From: a virus
Taxonomy: Duplodnaviria; Caudoviricetes
Virus record (IMG/VR): IMGVR_UViG_3300042010_000129
Span: 32,001-96,000 of that record
Reading direction: 5' to 3' (one strand)
Length of the DNA: 64,000 nt
A program made the translations under genes and the position numbers. Below the pieces are notes generated by a model. It was not told the DNA's origin and searched no databases. It saw only the letters and a program-made list of their open reading frames with translations. Position 1 is the first letter of the stretch. The number at the start of each line of letters is the position of its first letter. Of the stretch, positions 1-10,037 are shown piece by piece.

Positions 1-5
1 ATCCA

Positions 6-449
6 ATGCTGAACGACAATTTCGATCTGCATTCAATCGGCGGCTGCCCGGATGCGCAAGTTTCGCTGCCGGAATTCTTTCTGGATAACAGCAAAGCGTT
101 TTTGCATCTGCATCGTACCTGCATTCGTGCCCACTGGCGTAAAGCCGCTGGGTGCGAGCGCAGCACGTTGACCCTGACGTTCCATGATATTCAAGGTGAT
201 CAGGAATATCTGGATGCCCACGAAGCCTTCAACGCCGACATGGGCCAGCTGATTCTTCAGCAGTACAACCAAAAAGGCGAAGCAATTCGTCAGGTTATTT
301 TCTCTGACCTGAAGTTTTTCGACGCTGTGCAGAAACGTGATGCTTCCGAAGGCCGCGCCGCTGAACGCGATGTGACTTTCAAATACGCTTCCGAGCGAAT
401 CAGCACGTTTGAATTCGCCACTGTCAAAGAAATTGCTTTGGACAAGTGA
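6..449 (+). CDS. Possible tail tube/gp19-gp48-like fold protein (may begin upstream of window)
   Basis: TLTLTFHD...LQQYNQKG...VIFSDL...D.S...VTFKY pattern recalls the T4 gp19 fold; inference only. Confidence 0.35.
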   Translation: MLNDNFDLHSIGGCPDAQVSLPEFFLDNSKAFLHLHRTCIRAHWRKAAGCERSTLTLTFHDIQGDQEYLDAHEAFNADMGQLILQQYNQKGEAIRQVIFSDLKFFDAVQKRDASEGRAAERDVTFKYASERISTFEFATVKEIALDK

Positions 450-652
450 GCGTAACCCGTCCGCGTAGCACGCCTTGCATTGGCAAATGTTCTCACAACG
501 TTGGGGACGCCATTTGCAAGGGGTGCAAACGCACCATCGCAGAAGTCAGGGATTGGAATCGTTTTTCTCCCGACGAAAAAGTGCAACGGATGGAAGAATT
601 AAAGGTGCGCGACATTACGACATTCGTGATACCTATCGAACAACTTGATTAG
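446..652 (+). CDS. DUF1289-like small Cys-rich protein
   Basis: PCIGKCS...ICKGCKRTIAEVRDW motif; GTG start overlaps the upstream stop. Confidence 0.75.
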   Translation: MSVTRPRSTPCIGKCSHNVGDAICKGCKRTIAEVRDWNRFSPDEKVQRMEELKVRDITTFVIPIEQLD

Positions 653-661
653 CGTGAGAAT

Positions 662-823
662 ATGAAAAAATATCAGCGCGGCTATATTGACTTCAGTGGC
701 ATCGGAACTTTTCTGATTTGCTTGGGCGTCGTCGGTGGCATTTTGATCGGCGGCTTTATTTTCAAAGTCATTCCGTGGCTGTGGGATCTTTCGAAACCAT
801 GGCTGCACCAAATCACAGGGTGA
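662..823 (+). CDS. Small membrane protein (53 aa, not in ORF track)
   Basis: MKKYQRGYIDFSGIGTFLICLGVVGGILIGGFIFKVIPWLWDLSKPWLHQITG; fills the gap between flanking genes. Confidence 0.7.
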   Translation: MKKYQRGYIDFSGIGTFLICLGVVGGILIGGFIFKVIPWLWDLSKPWLHQITG

Positions 824-828
824 AGACT

Positions 829-1338
829 ATGCAACATCGCAGCATTACCGATGAAGACTTGCGCGACTTTCTGGAAGACGAAAATATCACCGACATTTCT
901 TTCGTGGCGCAGGGCCAAGTCCCGTACCACAACGGTGTGCAGCTTTTCGAAAAAGAATACGTCGGTCAAGGCCCCGACGTAGATTCCGCAATTGAAGGCG
1001 CCATGGCTACGTTCAGTGCTGAATATCGCGGCGAACGTGTCTACACTCGCGGCGTTCAGTTGTCCTCTACTGACTCCGGCATTCTCGCTGTGTTCGTCGC
1101 GGCGATTCGTCCGGCTCCGAAAAACTTCAGCCAAATCCTCAACGATTTGAAGAAAGGCGCACAAGCTCGCCGCGCTGGCTGGAACGGTGCAGGCCAGTGT
1201 GTTTATCTGGAACGCTTCGCAGATTTCGGCGTGAATTTCGAACCGTGTTTCGTTCTGCACAACGCGCAGGGCAAATTGCAACCGGGTTGGCTTCCGTCCA
1301 TGGGCGATCTGATGGCCGACGACTGGGAAGTCCTGTAA
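829..1338 (+). CDS. Protein with C-terminal DUF2829/Tad2-like domain
   Basis: FSQILNDLKKGAQARRAGWNGAG...WLPSMGDLMADDWEVL; start reassigned from 718 to ATG 829. Confidence 0.75.
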   Translation: MQHRSITDEDLRDFLEDENITDISFVAQGQVPYHNGVQLFEKEYVGQGPDVDSAIEGAMATFSAEYRGERVYTRGVQLSSTDSGILAVFVAAIRPAPKNFSQILNDLKKGAQARRAGWNGAGQCVYLERFADFGVNFEPCFVLHNAQGKLQPGWLPSMGDLMADDWEVL

Positions 1339-1580
1339 TGCTCAAAATCACCAGCATTGCCGCCTCGGAATTGAACGCACACATTGAAAAAATGAATGCC
1401 GAAACCCGTGACTGGACAGACCGGGCGGCACGCGGTGAATGCAGTTGGATTTGTGCCGACTGCTGCTGTACTTTTCCAAAGGGAATGCCTGACGATTGCG
1501 CACACGGGCACGACTTCTGCACACAGATAATCCATCGCGACAAACAGCGCGCCATGCGTGACGGTAATGAACCATCTTAA
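1338..1580 (+). CDS. Cys/His-rich hypothetical protein, possible zinc finger
   Basis: WICADCCCTFPKGMPDDCAHGHDFC; TAATG coupling at 1336-1340. Confidence 0.6.
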   Translation: MLKITSIAASELNAHIEKMNAETRDWTDRAARGECSWICADCCCTFPKGMPDDCAHGHDFCTQIIHRDKQRAMRDGNEPS

Positions 1581-1591
1581 CGGAGGAAAAA

Positions 1592-2605
1592 ATGTCTGCT
1601 GATAAAAACATGACCGGCGAACAAATTCAGCAGATTATGGATATGTTTTTGTACAAGGCACTCGAACCACTTGTCCTGTACACGAATATTTTCGATCCGC
1701 AAGTTGAGTATCTGTTGCTGCTGGTAGCGACCAACCGCAAACGCAAGCTGAGTTCGTTGGATCGTGGGGAAGCTGTGGAAAAACTCGCGGCCTATCTCAG
1801 TGTTCAGGATCGCAAGCAGAAATTCGAGTTCATTCGTGCGGCTCGCGTGGAAAGATTTTTCATCCACAAGTTTCTGATTTCGTTCACTGAGCAAAACATG
1901 GGCTACGTGAAACGCTACAAGGAATTCTTGCTGAATCCTACCAAGGAAAAGAAGATTGCCCTTGATCGGGACGCGGTGTTGATCGGGATGTGTGAGCGCT
2001 CGGCACTCTACAACACCCTGCAAATTTGCAACGCGTACCTGAAACGTTTTTACGTGTACCGAAATTCCGTCGTTGACCTGTACGTGAAGAACGCCAACAA
2101 GTGGGCGAAGGCCCACGTGATCGGTGCGCAAGGCCGGTCGAGTTTCAAAGACCTTGTGCAGTCGATTATCAAGGCTGTAATCACGGCGATGGATAAATAC
2201 GACAGTCGAAAAGGTGCCTTAACTTCCTACGTCACGTTCTGGACAAAAAACGCGATGAAGGCCAGTAAAGAACACGAATATGGCGTGGCTTACACTGTGC
2301 CGCAAGCACAGAAGAAAAAGCTTTTCGAGGGGACTAGCCACCACGTCAATTTCAGTGTGAGCCTCGACACGATTTATGGCGACGATGACGACGAAGGTTC
2401 AAGCATGGCCCTGCATTCTGTTCTGGCGCCGGGCCACACGCTGGAAAAAGGAATCGAAGTCGAACAAAGTCGCTCGCTTGTGCAGATGCTTGCGAAAAAA
2501 GTAGATCCGATGGGCATCGCTCGGTTGAGTCTGGATATTGGCGAGCATTTTACGCCAGAAGAACAGGCAATTATGCGCCAGCACATGCTCGAAGAAAAAC
2601 TGTAA
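1592..2605 (+). CDS. Sigma-70 family RNA polymerase sigma factor-like protein
   Basis: DLVQSIIKAVITAMDKYDSRKGALTSYVTFWTKNAM matches region 2 (DL.Q.G..GL..A++K+D...G..STYA.WWI+.A); GGAGG SD. Confidence 0.75.
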   Translation: MSADKNMTGEQIQQIMDMFLYKALEPLVLYTNIFDPQVEYLLLLVATNRKRKLSSLDRGEAVEKLAAYLSVQDRKQKFEFIRAARVERFFIHKFLISFTEQNMGYVKRYKEFLLNPTKEKKIALDRDAVLIGMCERSALYNTLQICNAYLKRFYVYRNSVVDLYVKNANKWAKAHVIGAQGRSSFKDLVQSIIKAVITAMDKYDSRKGALTSYVTFWTKNAMKASKEHEYGVAYTVPQAQKKKLFEGTSHHVNFSVSLDTIYGDDDDEGSSMALHSVLAPGHTLEKGIEVEQSRSLVQMLAKKVDPMGIARLSLDIGEHFTPEEQAIMRQHMLEEKL

Positions 2606-2608
2606 ATA
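2600..2608 (+). promoter_or_regulatory. CTGTAAATA candidate phage promoter
   Basis: Exact 9-mer recurring five times in the window, mostly at intergenic positions. Confidence 0.5.
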
Positions 2609-2617
2609 AACTGAGTG

Positions 2618-2809
2618 ATGTTCATGAAAGAAAAAAGCAACGTTGCAGTTGTCGATTTCCAAAATCCGCGTGACGCACAGGGCAACATCGTGCTTTTCCT
2701 GACGACTGAAGAACGCGCCAAACAGATTGCAGCAGAGGCCTACGAAAAGGCACTTAAAAACGTACTGGAACGCGCAGCCTCTGTTTACTGGCCGGGCGAT
2801 CCGACATAA
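2618..2809 (+). CDS. Hypothetical protein
   Basis: ORF with phage-like codon usage; start uncertain (2615, 2618 or 2624). Confidence 0.6.
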   Translation: MFMKEKSNVAVVDFQNPRDAQGNIVLFLTTEERAKQIAAEAYEKALKNVLERAASVYWPGDPT

Positions 2810-2821
2810 AGGGATTACACC

Positions 2822-3448
2822 ATGAGCAATTTGCTTGCACACGCTGACCGTGAATTCGCAATCACCATGCGGAACATGCGGGCCAATCCGGAAAACGACG
2901 AAAGCGATTTGACGATGCAGGAACATATGCATCAAAACGTGCGTGAAATTCTGGAAGTTGTTTCCCGTCAGGGGCACACCGGTTTCAGCATCAACTTTCT
3001 GTTCCAGATGGTTCAGAAAGTTGGAATGTTCGAACCGCTTTCTCCGATCCTTGGCACCGATGACGAATGGGTTGACGTTGCCAATATCAGCGGCGGGCAA
3101 CCGATGTTGCAGAACGCTCGCTGTGGTCACATTTTCCGTGATGGTGATTCGCAGGCTTACGATTCCACCGGTCGCGTTGTCGTTTGTGAAGACGGCCAGA
3201 CCGTGACGAATTATCAGAGCCGGGTTTACATCGAATTTCCGTATGTGCCGACTCGGGTTTACGCCCCGCATGGTGAAGACCTCGAACGTTTTATCCGCGC
3301 CGGTATTGTGGTTGGTGACGACTACAAAACTGCCGACGAAGTTCGCGAACTTTACAAGGTTCTGAAACGCACGGAAGAATTGCGCGAAGCTGGGCAAGCA
3401 TTTGTTGCAGAAGTAAAAGCAACCGGCCTACCCAACGTAGACGAATAA
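2822..3448 (+). CDS. Conserved phage hypothetical protein
   Basis: QGHTGFS...EPLSPILGTDDEW...QNARC pattern; SD upstream. Confidence 0.7.
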   Translation: MSNLLAHADREFAITMRNMRANPENDESDLTMQEHMHQNVREILEVVSRQGHTGFSINFLFQMVQKVGMFEPLSPILGTDDEWVDVANISGGQPMLQNARCGHIFRDGDSQAYDSTGRVVVCEDGQTVTNYQSRVYIEFPYVPTRVYAPHGEDLERFIRAGIVVGDDYKTADEVRELYKVLKRTEELREAGQAFVAEVKATGLPNVDE

Positions 3449-3450
3449 AA

Positions 3451-4840: not shown

Positions 4841-6403
4841 ATGGCAAAAACCGCCGTAAAGACCAAAAAGCTCGACCTTTCCGAAAAGGTTCTGAAGACT
4901 TCCAAGTCGAAAGTTCCAGCCGTCGTTGAGAAAAAGACTTCCAAGTCGAAAGCTCCGGCAGTGAAAGGCTCTAAGAGCAAGGATGTAGCCGTCGCGTCTG
5001 CAAAGTCCGACAAATTTGTCTTCAACCCTTACGCATCATTCGAAGACGAAATTGATAACATGGAAAAAAAGGTCGGCCTGACCTCCATGTCTGTCAACGA
5101 AAAAGAAGACCGATTGGGAACAGGCAGTCTCTGTCTCGATCTGCAAATGGCTGGTGGCCTTCTGGCCGGTGGCTGGTACACCTTCTACGGTGCGGAACAG
5201 TCGTGTAAAACCACGCTCGCCACAACCGTGATGGGTTCCATTGTTCGTAAAGCAGATTTCTTGGGGAAAGCGTTTTTCTTCGACTACGAAGGTTCGTTCT
5301 CCGCAGAATATGCGAACAACATGTGGAAATATAACGGTGGCGGTTCTGCCGGTACTGTTGAGCAGGTTTTCGGCCTGCAAGGTAAAGACGGCGAGTGGAT
5401 TATTCGCCCGCGTATTCGTAACTACGCGCCAGCAGTTGGCGAAGACTTTTTCGATGCGCTGGCTAGCACACTGAAAAAGCTTCCGTCTGTTCTGAAACTC
5501 GATGGTGATTTCTTCTACATTTACGAAAACACCAAAGCAAATCAGAAGCTGACCAAGGGTCACTACGACGTTAAATATTTCAAGAAGACCAACAAGTTCA
5601 AAGTCCCGGCGCCTCACGGTTTGCCGCAGGCTGTGTTCCTTGTGGACTCCTACCCGGCAATGCTTTCGCGTCGTGCAGATGACAGCGACGAAGGTAAAGA
5701 CGGTTTGGCCTCGCAAGCGCGTATGTTCTCTGACGGGATCAAACGTGTTAAAGGCCGCATGAAAGAAAAACGCGTTCTGGTTCTCGGCATCAACCAATTG
5801 CGTTCTGTTCCGATGGCGATGTACGGCCCGACCGAACAGGAACCTTGCGGTCAAGCGCTGAAATATTTCTCTGACGCTCGTTTCCGTATGTCTCCGATTG
5901 CGATTCCGCACGCGAAAGGCATGATGGAAGAAGAGCCGTCGATCAGCGGTAACGGTGTTGATACCTACCGTTACATCAAATGCCACGCATTCAAAAATAA
6001 ACTCGGTGGCCCGCAAAAATCCAACATGATCATGCGTTTGTATGTGTCGAACGAAGACGGCGAAGGCCTCGGTTTCGACCGCGTGTGGGATACGTGGATG
6101 TACTTGAAAGAAACTGGTCAGATTTCCGGCCAGCGCAACAAAATGAAATTCGCAGAAGGTACACCGTTCGCAGGTCACACCCTGTCGTACATGGATCTGA
6201 AGAAATTGGTCGATGGCAAAAAAGAATTGATCAAATCTTGCTGCGAAAAAATGAAGGTCAAGCCGCTGCGTATTTACGAGTGGTGCCGCAAGCAAATCGA
6301 ATCCGGCAAGGGTTACGATTTGTACCTTGAGCAAATCAAAGCAACCCACACCAAAAAGGCAGCGAAAGCCGCAGCCAAAGGTGACGGAGAGGACGAAGAA
6401 TGA
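4841..6403 (+). CDS. recA: RecA/UvsX-like recombinase
   Basis: LGTGSLCLD..GG, Walker A GAEQSCKTT, FDYEGS, Walker B LVDSYPAM, INQLR, G.ALK+FS.AR. Confidence 0.9.
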   Translation: MAKTAVKTKKLDLSEKVLKTSKSKVPAVVEKKTSKSKAPAVKGSKSKDVAVASAKSDKFVFNPYASFEDEIDNMEKKVGLTSMSVNEKEDRLGTGSLCLDLQMAGGLLAGGWYTFYGAEQSCKTTLATTVMGSIVRKADFLGKAFFFDYEGSFSAEYANNMWKYNGGGSAGTVEQVFGLQGKDGEWIIRPRIRNYAPAVGEDFFDALASTLKKLPSVLKLDGDFFYIYENTKANQKLTKGHYDVKYFKKTNKFKVPAPHGLPQAVFLVDSYPAMLSRRADDSDEGKDGLASQARMFSDGIKRVKGRMKEKRVLVLGINQLRSVPMAMYGPTEQEPCGQALKYFSDARFRMSPIAIPHAKGMMEEEPSISGNGVDTYRYIKCHAFKNKLGGPQKSNMIMRLYVSNEDGEGLGFDRVWDTWMYLKETGQISGQRNKMKFAEGTPFAGHTLSYMDLKKLVDGKKELIKSCCEKMKVKPLRIYEWCRKQIESGKGYDLYLEQIKATHTKKAAKAAAKGDGEDEE

Positions 6404-6618
6404 AACCCGACGACGTAGTAACAGAAAACACGGCAGCGCACGCGGCAGGTATGACGGCTGCGTCGTTGGAATTCCTCAAGACCAATCTGGAAGCGCTCCT
6501 AAAATTGCAGGCATATTTGCAGGCAAATAAATTGGGCGGCGGTCGGGAAGTCGCGTTGTCGATTACCAACCTGCAACAAAGCATCTTCTGGCTGACTGAA
6601 GCCAAAATCAAAATCTGA
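6400..6618 (+). CDS. Acb2/Tad1-like helical hairpin protein (candidate nucleotide sponge)
   Basis: GREVALSITNLQQSIFWL resembles the RE.++AIT.LE+A.+W signature. Confidence 0.55.
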   Translation: MKPDDVVTENTAAHAAGMTAASLEFLKTNLEALLKLQAYLQANKLGGGREVALSITNLQQSIFWLTEAKIKI

Positions 6619-7619: not shown

Positions 7620-7723
7620 TGACGGGTTCAGCGCGGTCGTGCTGAGCAACACACTAACGGAATATGGGAAGTTTCATTTCCCTGAATGCCATGCATACAA
7701 CCAGCAGTTTGAAGGATCGGTAT

Positions 7724-8197
7724 ATGGATATCGACTATCAGACATTCGAGTCCGGGGATTTTTCTTGCCTACTCGTTTTGTCTAACGGATGCGCAGATTC
7801 AATCGGTTATATTGCAGACCACATTCCACGCAAAGATAGCGTGCTTGTGGTGGCGTCTCATAAGAATATTGAGGCGGCGGAAAAGGAAGTGGCCGGGTAC
7901 ATTATGGCTACTGCAAACAAAGAAAGTATCTACGTGCATAACGTTTTGGTACTGGATAAGTTCCAACGCAAAGGCATCGCTACCAAGATGCTGATGGAAC
8001 TCGAAAAACTTATTTGGCAGGAGCGCGCTGAATACCCGATTATGCTTTTTACAGGCGAAGAAAATAAAGCGGCAATGAATTGTTATGCGAAGGCAGGTTT
8101 CACTATTGCCCTACGCATTCCGAATTGTCGCAACTCAGGCGAAGCACGAATAGCTCTGCGTAAAGACAGCAGCGTCGGCTATCATCTGGCGTCGTAA
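7724..8197 (+). CDS. GNAT (RimI-like) acetyltransferase
   Basis: YVHNVLVLDKFQRKGIATKML...NKAAMNCYAKAGF; GAAGGA SD before ATG 7724. Confidence 0.85.
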   Translation: MDIDYQTFESGDFSCLLVLSNGCADSIGYIADHIPRKDSVLVVASHKNIEAAEKEVAGYIMATANKESIYVHNVLVLDKFQRKGIATKMLMELEKLIWQERAEYPIMLFTGEENKAAMNCYAKAGFTIALRIPNCRNSGEARIALRKDSSVGYHLAS

Positions 8198-8280: not shown

Positions 8281-9531
8281 GTGGCTCATTCTAAATTTGA
8301 CGACCTGATCAAAGCGCTCAATGCCTTTGAATCCGGTATGGCAGAAAATACGCTCACGCGTAAAAGCGACATTATCAAACGGCTTGAAGAAATTTCGAAC
8401 CAAGCCACTATCCTGTTGAATCAGGGTAGCCTCCCAACGGGTAGCAAATCGACGCTTCTGAAGATCCGGAAACTGGTCAAAGAAACCGCCGAAGGTTTGC
8501 GCACCGACGTGTTCAGTTCCTTGGGGCCGATCCGTCGTATTTCTCGCGATCATTTGGGCACGCTTCACTCTGCATTGACTTTGCAGCTTGGCGGCGGTCT
8601 GACTGCTGAAGAGAAAACGCAAATCCGCGAAAGCTACGTCTCCGACGAAGATACGTCAGCCGAAGTCGAACGCCTCATTGAAGCATTCGATCCCGGTTCG
8701 TTGACCATCGGCGGCACGAAAGTTGATCTGCAATTGGCGCTGAATCATGTTCGCCAATTTCTGGATCAGAATTTCACGCTCTCGCAATTGCGCTCGATCC
8801 AGCCTTACAAATCCGGCGAATTGACTCCGGGCGGAAAGCCAGTCAAAAATCCTGACTCTGTTTGGAATGACCTCACGTACAGCGAAGTGCTGGCCGCGTC
8901 CGAGGAAACCCCAAAAGGCAAAACCCGTCTGGCCGCTCTCAAGCGCGAACTGGTCAAAAAACACGACGATGATTTGGCGACTCTTTCCGAGTCCTACAAA
9001 GAATTGTCGCGTCGTATGCCGCGAACCCTGAAACATCCCTTTGCCTCAATCTATTATCCCGTTGTTCCGATTTTCCAAGACATTGGCGTTTACAAAAATC
9101 CAACCCGTTTGGAAAACGCTGGCCTCAAGGTGACTCGCATTGGCGACCACTTTATCGTTCTGGAAAACCAACTGCTGCTGTGCATTGATCTTGATCGCAT
9201 CGGTATTAAAGACGGCATCCGTTTGACCAAAGACGGCCAGCGGATGAAAACTGTAAATAATAACAGTGCGTTGGAAACCGAAGTACACAAGATCGTTGGT
9301 CACATTAACGAAACGGCTCGCCACTCCGGCACTTCGTTTGCTGTTGCATCCGATACCATCGTGCGCAATCCGAACAACCCGCGAATCGCACTCGTCTGGT
9401 TGATTGAAGAAAAAGTTCGTAAGAAACTTGCCAACACGTTGACCAACACAAAAGTTCAGTGGGATATTCCGCGCCATCAAATGGAACCCACGCGTCTTAG
9501 CAAACGCCCTGCGCCAGCACGGACGAAGTGA
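8281..9531 (+). CDS. Hypothetical protein (416 aa)
   Basis: Long ORF, GTG start, phage-like codon usage; no recognised motif. Confidence 0.75.
   Translation: MAHSKFDDLIKALNAFESGMAENTLTRKSDIIKRLEEISNQATILLNQGSLPTGSKSTLLKIRKLVKETAEGLRTDVFSSLGPIRRISRDHLGTLHSALTLQLGGGLTAEEKTQIRESYVSDEDTSAEVERLIEAFDPGSLTIGGTKVDLQLALNHVRQFLDQNFTLSQLRSIQPYKSGELTPGGKPVKNPDSVWNDLTYSEVLAASEETPKGKTRLAALKRELVKKHDDDLATLSESYKELSRRMPRTLKHPFASIYYPVVPIFQDIGVYKNPTRLENAGLKVTRIGDHFIVLENQLLLCIDLDRIGIKDGIRLTKDGQRMKTVNNNSALETEVHKIVGHINETARHSGTSFAVASDTIVRNPNNPRIALVWLIEEKVRKKLANTLTNTKVQWDIPRHQMEPTRLSKRPAPARTK
9251..9259 (+). promoter_or_regulatory. CTGTAAATA candidate internal promoter
   Basis: AAAACTGTAAATAATA context identical to the 3451 copy; inside a CDS about 270 nt before the HNH gene. 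Confidence 0.4.
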
Positions 9532-10037
9532 CAGAAAAGTACAATGAGGGAGACTGCACGATTTGCGAAAAGTACCAGTCGCTTTTGCACTGGCACCACA
9601 CAATTCCGCAATCGCTTGGCGGTAAAAACAGCCTGCAAATCCCTCTTTGCGCTCAGTGTCATAACCTTCTGCATGCACATGCGTTGGCTATTTACGCTAG
9701 AACTAAAACAGGCCGAGCAATCCAGAAAAAATACTGGGCGACTCCGGCCATGGAACACAATGCAGGCCAGTGGTTAAAAATACTGGTAGAGGCAATTTTG
9801 TCTGACGAAGCTGTTGTGGGTAAACAGTACGTCATGCAATTCAAAGCGTCCCCTGCGTTGCACACAGCACTGCAACTGTTCAAATCGGACAGCAACGTAT
9901 CGTCGCTAGAGAAAGCGATGATATTAGCAATTAGTGATCATTTAAGAAATAGGGGCTACTTGGATAATGAGCGTTCAATCAGGGATCAAAGCACGGGTAA
10001 CAAAGGCACTTCGCGAAGTAAGCCCAACCTGTGGTGA
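9528..10037 (+). CDS. HNH endonuclease-domain protein
   Basis: CTIC...HWHHTIPQSLGG...LCAQCHNLLH. Confidence 0.8.
   Translation: MTEKYNEGDCTICEKYQSLLHWHHTIPQSLGGKNSLQIPLCAQCHNLLHAHALAIYARTKTGRAIQKKYWATPAMEHNAGQWLKILVEAILSDEAVVGKQYVMQFKASPALHTALQLFKSDSNVSSLEKAMILAISDHLRNRGYLDNERSIRDQSTGNKGTSRSKPNLW

Follow-up and report, generated by a model that had tools for sequence, protein, structure and literature searches.

The gene at positions 829 to 1338 (plus strand) of the window, by which we mean the whole 64,000-nucleotide stretch of viral DNA analysed here, encodes a two-domain Tad2-like protein that is probably an anti-Thoeris Tad2 sponge of a Lu11-like jumbo phage, equipped with an accessory N-terminal domain. 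The window itself comes from a Pseudomonas jumbo phage of the Lu11 type; over the first 8 kb, its nucleotide identity is 81% to HRDY3 and 78% to Lu11. The reading frame runs from an ATG at 829 to a TAA at 1336–1338 and contains 169 codons plus the stop. We regard the ATG at 829 as the real start, because all 19 of the 19 full-length homologues (38–98% identical to the 169-aa protein) start at the equivalent position, and because the upstream alternative, a TTG at 718 that would yield a 206-aa product, overlaps a conserved gene of 53 aa that is read in a different frame; the TTG start was ruled out on both counts. An earlier note, made from the letters alone, had pointed to two motifs in the C-terminal ~70 aa, and both are present in the translation: F..IL..LKKG....R.GWNG occupies residues 100–120 and W.PS..D..A.DW residues 154–166 (that is, from F100, and from W154 to W166), with bases 1180–1188 reading TGG AAC GGT and bases 1288–1308 encoding WLPSMGD.

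Residues 99–169 (1123..1335, plus strand) constitute a Tad2-like sponge domain. They match the Pfam family PF11195 Tad2-like, previously named DUF2829, over profile positions 2–73 of 73 with 72.6 bits and an E-value of 4e-20, far above chance given the family cut-off of 25 bits. A sequence search of the PDB with this domain returned SptTad2, SPO1 Tad2, HgmTad2/AcrIIA7, ModTad2 and pdAcrIIA7. The AlphaFold2 model of the full protein, built on 20 full-length homologues, has a mean pLDDT of 87.9, and Foldseek superposed its C-terminal half on solved Tad2 chains with a TMt of about 0.8 and an rmsd of 1.8–2.5 Å (probability 1.00 to the 8sme, 8smf and 8wje chains). VIA-align gave the same picture, with Z-scores of 11.7 to 8kbi and 11.1 to 9eib at an rmsd of 2.3–2.5 Å over 71–73 residues. 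The earlier note had assigned the C-terminal ~70 aa to Tad2/DUF2829 and had proposed a Pfam HMM comparison and a structure model as checks. The profile match proved significant over the full domain (E 4e-20) and the model superposes on Tad2 (Z 11.7, rmsd 2.5 Å), so that the assignment is now backed by HMM, structure and, as set out below, pocket residues.

To compare the pocket, we transferred the published ligand contacts onto the protein through HMMER alignments with 8sme and 8kbi. SPO1 Tad2 contacts gcADPR through W25, N26, W73, S76 and D79, and its T78 hydrogen-bonds the adenine (10.1101/2023.05.01.538930); the contacts in HgmTad2 are W21/N22/G23 and S90/T92/D93 (10.1101/2023.11.15.567273). 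The five SPO1 residues align to W118, N119, W154, S157 and D160, Hgm W21/N22 and S90/D93 align likewise to W118/N119 and S157/D160, and all five positions are invariant in the alignment of 20 homologues. W118-N119-G120 (1180..1188, plus strand), also invariant in the 20 homologues, is the counterpart of the SPO1 W25/N26 and Hgm W21/N22/G23 elements that provide ligand stacking and phosphate contacts, and W154-L-P-S157-M-G159-D160 (1288..1308, plus strand), in which the W, S and D are conserved, is the predicted second half of the gcADPR pocket. The adenine side is different. At the position where SPO1 T78 or Hgm T92 hydrogen-bonds the adenine, the 20 homologues have an invariant Gly159, and the water-coordinating and adenine-side SPO1 residues T65/D67/H71 correspond to N145/Q147/Q151 in the window protein. 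Since Gly159 is invariant and the residues at the SPO1 T65, D67 and H71 positions have changed, the ligand could differ from gcADPR.

A reported sponge helps to interpret the Gly. Among characterised proteins, a Thr at the adenine position goes with type I Thoeris (SPO1, Hgm, Tad2_70, 71 and 83; 10.1101/2025.08.24.671296, Table S2, and related papers), a Ser with type II (ModTad2 and Tad2_76) and a Gly with both, as seen for Tad2_68 (same preprint and related papers). [quoted passage not shown] Because the same change occurs in this protein, which is reported to be active, we read Gly159 as a specificity variant and not as a disqualifier; by analogy with the few proteins tested, it may open the pocket to His-ADPR besides gcADPR. 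The pattern NAQG...QPGW(L/V)PS(M/I)GD defines a Tad2 subclade that comprises 70–97-aa stand-alone proteins as well as fusions in which various unrelated domains precede or follow the Tad2 part. Other members of the NAQG...PSMGD subclade (L010–L013, L017, L019–L022; P0021–P0026) carry at least four further unrelated extensions: a ~118-aa N-terminal domain on 195–314-kb contigs, an LPQYKCHK-type N-terminal domain, an acidic N-terminal domain and a Cys-rich extension at the C-terminus. Databases contain many fusions of Tad2 to additional domains, and a large sponge survey left out some multi-domain members.

The Tad2 domain of the window protein is also minimal. The beta2-beta3 loop (residues 129–138, RFADFGVNFE; 1213..1242, plus strand) falls opposite gaps in the alignments with SPO1, Spt, Hgm and Mod Tad2, the insertion at this position being about 10 residues long, where SPO1 Tad2 has 24 aa and HgmTad2 has 41 aa. 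Long-insertion proteins of the HgmTad2/SptTad2 type act as dual sponges for gcADPR and cyclic dinucleotides. When the alignments are taken segment by segment, Hgm residues 33–69 correspond to about 7 residues of the window protein and the 24-aa SPO1 insertion to about 13. In HgmTad2 a ~40-aa insertion between beta2 and beta5 builds the cyclic-dinucleotide pocket (10.1101/2023.11.15.567273), and in MoTad2 cUMP is bound at the interface equivalent to that pocket. Since the pocket-forming insertion is missing, the second, cyclic-nucleotide pocket is probably absent, and judging from the alignments we consider cyclic-dinucleotide binding by the Tad2 domain unlikely; a pocket of this kind was accordingly dropped as a candidate feature. 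F133 within the loop is kept and aligns with SPO1 Tad2 F44, a residue stacked between the alpha2 helices in each V-shaped dimer, and helix alpha1 is conserved, both of which hint at a tetramer. The truncated alpha2 region might nevertheless alter the oligomer.

The same loop stands out in the closest IMG/VR relative (L003, positions 5001–5507), the N-terminal domain of which is 86% identical to that of the window protein, while the Tad2 domain is 69% identical. The differences between the two cluster in the beta2-beta3 loop, with YLERFADFGVNFEP against WLTTLGSSALPYLP, and this concentration identifies the loop as a local hot spot. In other Tad2 proteins, this is the element that builds the dimer interface and the second pocket.

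We then considered the N-terminal domain (residues 1–98; 829..1122, plus strand). Modelled alone, residues 1–98 adopt an alpha/beta fold with a pLDDT of 87.3 and a pTM of 0.79, and the domain is confidently modelled in the full protein as well. It consists of a helix (8–17), a strand (23–25), a long 12-residue strand (37–48), a 15-residue helix (51–65) and a hairpin (71–81/84–95), and carries the conserved motifs FEKEYxG, GExxYxR and AAxRxxP. Profile searches against Pfam, NCBIfam and PHROG returned no family match, DUF2173 being rejected with E-values of 0.05–0.085, below threshold. Comparison with about 48,000 PDB representatives likewise yielded no convincing relative: the best Z-scores of 5.5–5.7, to HK97-type capsid P-domains, CAP/SCP proteins, dodecins and the archease-family protein MTH1598, lie in the range, up to 5.7, that the structure-comparison tool calls common for unrelated chains. 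We therefore assign no fold to the domain; HK97 P-domain, CAP/SCP, DUF74, dodecin, archease and SIMPL all score at noise level (Z of 5.7 or less, or TM about 0.5). For dodecin and SHS2-archease the values were Foldseek E 0.3–0.7 at a probability of about 0.5, VIA Z 4.4–4.6 and Atlas TM 0.47–0.55, again in the noise range, and a sequence signal to either was absent. A feature search of the ESM Atlas brought up no usable match. The lack of a clear fold match does not prove a new fold. The earlier note had set apart the N-terminal ~100 aa as a separate, unexplained domain, and this view holds, as the region folds alone, matches no family and reaches a best Z of only 5.5. Its description as acidic applies to the window copy, which has a pI of 4.5 with 16 D+E versus 8 K+R among its 98 aa, but not to the family; homologous N-terminal domains span pI 4.4 to 9.3, so acidity is not a family trait.

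The distribution of this domain is narrow. A profile of six N-terminal domains searched against 1.84 billion cluster representatives returned ten proteins, six of which are Tad2 fusions of 169–180 aa; the other four are 600–2500-aa Ig or beta-propeller repeat proteins matched over stretches of 20–40 residues, which we consider spurious. A tblastn search of 50,697 phage genomes with the N-terminal domain alone found HRDY3 only. By sequence, the domain thus appears private to the family and is never found apart from Tad2. Two further candidate relationships were rejected by hhalign. The idea of gene fission, with either gp043, which lies upstream of tad2 in SP-10/SBSphiC, or PaBG gp303 being equivalent to the N-terminal domain, had arisen from tblastn alignments crossing the gene boundary and received a probability below 1%, and homology to the ~118-aa N-terminal domain of the 186–189-aa Tad2 fusions on jumbo-phage contigs (L010–L013) received 0.04%.

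Structure comparison reached somewhat further. Among viral proteins, a Tad2-like one of 216 aa from phage PaBG matches the N-terminal domain best (Foldseek TMq 0.78, E 7e-5), followed by a 213-aa protein of the Dickeya phage JA11. In hhalign the N-terminal domain alone aligned with the PaBG protein at an E-value of 1e-4, and the two domains together at 90% probability. The PaBG protein, including its N-terminal domain, is a member of phrog_1048, a two-domain Tad2-like family of unknown function; the C-terminal domain of the window protein matches profile positions 111–193 of 211 of this family (E 4e-17), and its N-terminal domain has no direct match to any PHROG, phrog_1048 included. We regard the PaBG protein as a remote relative, and as the sole relative of the N-terminal domain detected outside the family, apart from the weaker structure match in JA11. 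The PaBG link of the N-terminal domain together with the phrog_1048 membership indicates that the two-domain architecture probably predates the Lu11 group. PaBG has two DUF2829 genes: the two-domain copy (L032, 119448–120098) and a 77-aa stand-alone copy located beside the clamp loader (L025, NC_022096 131548–132346).

What, then, might the N-terminal domain do? Within the family it evolves faster than the sponge domain, with mean pairwise identities of 46% and 66%, respectively, as would be expected for a surface tracking a variable host protein, and despite this divergence the polar and aromatic strand residues E41, K42, E43, Y44, E69, Y72, R74 and R94 remain invariant or near-invariant. Together with the confident folding of the domain on its own, these observations can be taken to suggest a bifunctional inhibitor, in which the N-terminal domain is a second counter-defence module that binds a host immune protein or a second signal while the Tad2 domain sponges gcADPR. 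Phage sponges often have more than one pocket, Tad3–Tad8 bind ThsB or ThsA, and the beta-alpha-beta-beta core is weakly similar to dodecin and archease/SHS2 proteins, whose oligomer interfaces accommodate ligands or partners. We nevertheless consider this reading doubtful. Neither sequence nor structure searches related the domain to known anti-defence proteins or ligand-binding families, and all of the structural likenesses are in the noise range (Z of 5.7 or less). Among the 1.84 billion representatives it occurs in about six clusters, all of them Tad2 fusions, and never alone or with another sponge family. Moreover, the head of pdAcrIIA7, the sole studied precedent for an N-terminal add-on, masks activity instead of adding one. 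An undescribed, fast-evolving counter-defence module that binds a Thoeris or other host immune protein, or that forms a new ligand pocket at an oligomer interface, is similarly unlikely. If it were true, a single polypeptide would both sequester the signal and impose another block that differs in mechanism, the two-domain proteins of PaBG and Dickeya JA11 would fall within a new anti-immunity domain family, and so possibly would ~100-aa stand-alone phage proteins that show weak structure matches only.

The pdAcrIIA7 precedent also bears on whether the N-terminal domain could be a regulatory lid, masking or gating the Tad2 core so that the full-length protein would gain activity, or change its specificity, only once the domain had shifted or been taken off. 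The two-helix 48-residue head of pdAcrIIA7 sits on a core of the same fold that is tetrameric either way and active only without the head. In the window protein the two domains are joined by a short linker of high model confidence (pLDDT above 90 around residues 91–100), which in the model suggests a fixed position of the N-terminal domain near helix alpha1, at the tetramer core. However, a two-helix head and a 98-aa alpha/beta domain are unrelated add-ons, and it is not obvious how an inhibitor that is permanently fused in all relatives would be released. In addition, the Tad2 domain of the window protein is acidic (pI about 5), so an AcrIIA7-like RNA-binding groove is unlikely, which counts further against a lid. 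On balance we find it improbable that the domain acts in this way. An accessory part of the sponge is the most likely role, ahead of an independent second activity and, behind that, a lid of the pdAcrIIA7 type; a free-standing second inhibitor is the less likely option. N-terminal add-ons would, by analogy with pdAcrIIA7, be compatible with the Tad2-fold tetramer.

The genomic context of the gene was compared across eight related Lu11-like phages and contigs, including Lu11, HRDY3 and L003–L008. The Tad2-like gene lies within a tight same-strand run, with the conserved 53-aa gene ending 5 bases upstream, and the gene order is kept in all eight relatives: DUF1289, 53-aa membrane protein, Tad2-like, Cys-rich ORF (where present), sigma factor, 64-aa ORF, Tad3-like (where present), SSB and RecA. 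The first gene of this series encodes a 68-aa Cys-rich DUF1289 protein (PF06945, E 7e-16; 446–652, plus strand), lies two genes upstream of the Tad2-like gene and is 72–96% identical in all relatives. The 80-aa Cys-rich ORF (1338–1580, plus strand; phrog_31156, unknown function, E 2e-34) starts on a TAATG overlapping the stop of the Tad2-like gene; it occurs in four of the eight relatives (HRDY3, L003, L004 and L005), and tblastn found no match in Lu11 or L006–L008. The Tad2-like gene, although present in 8/8 relatives, has diverged far more than the genes around it: its product in L005, for instance, is 55% identical to that of the window, compared to 94% (sigma factor), 95% (SSB) and 88% (RecA) for the neighbouring ones. 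This always-present, fast-diverging pattern fits that of arms-race genes.

About 1.5 kb downstream of the Tad2-like gene is a gene for a 208-aa Tad3-like protein (2822–3448, plus strand; Pfam PF25185 over residues 2–130, E 4.7e-28), which extends beyond the match by about 78 residues at the C-terminus. Of the eight relatives, six have this gene; Lu11 and HRDY3 do not. Tad3, a type I Thoeris inhibitor, is described as forming homodimers that bind the TIR enzyme ThsB and block it. The Lu11 middle/late promoter motif AACTGTAAAT occurs exactly at 2598, upstream of the Tad3-like gene, and at 3449, right after its stop; we found no Lu11-type promoter motif directly upstream of 829 and no sigma-70-like sites in window positions 1–3000. 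Overlapping the end of the RecA-like gene is a 72-aa ORF (6400–6618, plus strand) with a weak match to Pfam Acb2_Tad1_hairpin (E 5.9e-4, 20.4 bits against a 27-bit cut-off), which is kept in Lu11 and HRDY3 at 32–40% identity and, going by its sequence, may be a third anti-signalling gene of the block. Replication genes downstream of RecA are interspersed with a GNAT acetyltransferase (7664–8197, plus strand; PF00583, E 1e-12) and an HNH endonuclease (9528–10037, plus strand; PF14279, E 2e-6). In N4-like phages, according to a recent preprint, Tad2, Tad3, Acb4 and Sequestin lie among SSB and RecA homologues in an anti-signalling hotspot, and the arrangement in the window is reminiscent of it.

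The fixed slot between the DUF1289 gene and the sigma factor, near SSB and RecA in every relative, has a second possible meaning: the Tad2 fold might bind some other nucleotide-like molecule or RNA and serve the phage replication or late-transcription module, with no part in Thoeris inhibition. The adenine-side pocket residues are indeed unlike those of SPO1 Tad2, and some DUF2829 proteins inhibited none of seven systems (10.1101/2025.08.24.671296). Yet none of the five core pocket residues varies, and the great majority of reported Tad2 homologues retain a functional gcADPR site; divergence is much faster in this gene than in the housekeeping genes around it; the block also contains a Tad3 homologue and the weak Acb2/Tad1-hairpin match; and N4-like phages carry anti-signalling genes among SSB and RecA. 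We therefore judge this the most improbable of the readings weighed here. The location of the gene does count against an anti-Thoeris sponge to the extent that a conserved core slot in a replication/transcription module is not obviously a variable island, and so does the lack of a Lu11-type promoter motif directly upstream.

For the preferred reading, an anti-Thoeris sponge with an accessory domain, we propose the following mechanism. Residues 99–169, as a minimal Tad2 domain, would assemble into the homotetramer typical of the family, composed of two V-shaped dimers; W118/N119 and W154/S157/D160 would line the ligand pockets formed between protomers. ADP-ribose-derived signals made by TIR enzymes (3′cADPR/gcADPR) would be sequestered there, and as a result the Thoeris effector would never be switched on. 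Gly159 could widen the pocket toward His-ADPR, the type II Thoeris signal, as in Tad2_68. The N-terminal domain would act as an accessory part, either stabilising the oligomer, given the truncated alpha2 dimer element, or forming a cap or gate on the pockets. In phages that also have the Tad3-like gene, the Tad2 sponge would be carried alongside a putative direct inhibitor of ThsB.

Few phage counter-defences are as widespread as Tad2 sponges, and functional work has centred on short single-domain forms; here a two-domain form is conserved across a group of soil Pseudomonas jumbo phages. The Tad2 assignment as such is ordinary, and nothing in the protein is categorically new. What is particular to it is the combination of a private alpha/beta N-terminal domain, a minimal core with a Gly variant and a fixed position in the replication block beside a Tad3 homologue. 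The Gly-for-Thr pocket variant may mark broadened specificity. If the N-terminal domain alters oligomer state, gating or specificity, it would point to wider rules for sponge tuning, and if it has its own target it would represent a new module. More broadly, in Lu11-like jumbo phages Tad2-like and Tad3-like genes, and possibly Acb2/Tad1-hairpin-like genes, sit among sigma factor, SSB and RecA.

SPO1 Tad2 (gp34.65; 8SME/8SMF/8SMG, 8WJE) has the same fold as the window protein (TMt 0.8, rmsd about 1.9 Å, about 30% identity), and has the five pocket residues and the alpha2 Phe, F44, in common with it, but is a single 89-aa domain that has the 24-aa insertion and T78 and no N-terminal domain. Tad2_68 (IMG/VR 3300014659; 35% identical) shares GWNG.GQ ... 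NAQGK ... W.PS(I/M)GD and the Gly at the Thr position; unlike the window protein, it is an 87-aa single-domain protein with a longer insertion. The DUF2829 core is likewise common to HgmTad2/meAcrIIA7 (8KBI–8KBM; Z 11.7 to 8kbi) and pdAcrIIA7 (PDB 9KZR). The window protein lacks both the 41-aa insertion that forms the cyclic-dinucleotide pocket of Hgm and its basic tracrRNA-binding groove, and pdAcrIIA7 also carries an N-terminal add-on, but one unrelated to the 98-aa alpha/beta domain; this protein is a tetramer with or without the 48-aa head, and the head blocks tracrRNA binding by the tetramer groove. The ligands of the Tad2 family are diverse and include His-ADPR, N7-cADPR, cUMP, cyclic dinucleotides and tracrRNA. 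Among two-domain proteins, the window protein is the orthologue of Lu11_0169 (38% identity) and HRDY3 XDJ15117 (43%), which are annotated as hypothetical proteins and share its architecture and its slot upstream of sigma factor, SSB and RecA, in phages without a Tad3-like gene. The PaBG 216-aa protein (UniProt S5VZM3), likewise from a Pseudomonas jumbo phage, shares this two-domain order, but it is about 25% identical, the WNG motif has been lost from its Tad2 part and its gene occupies another genomic location.
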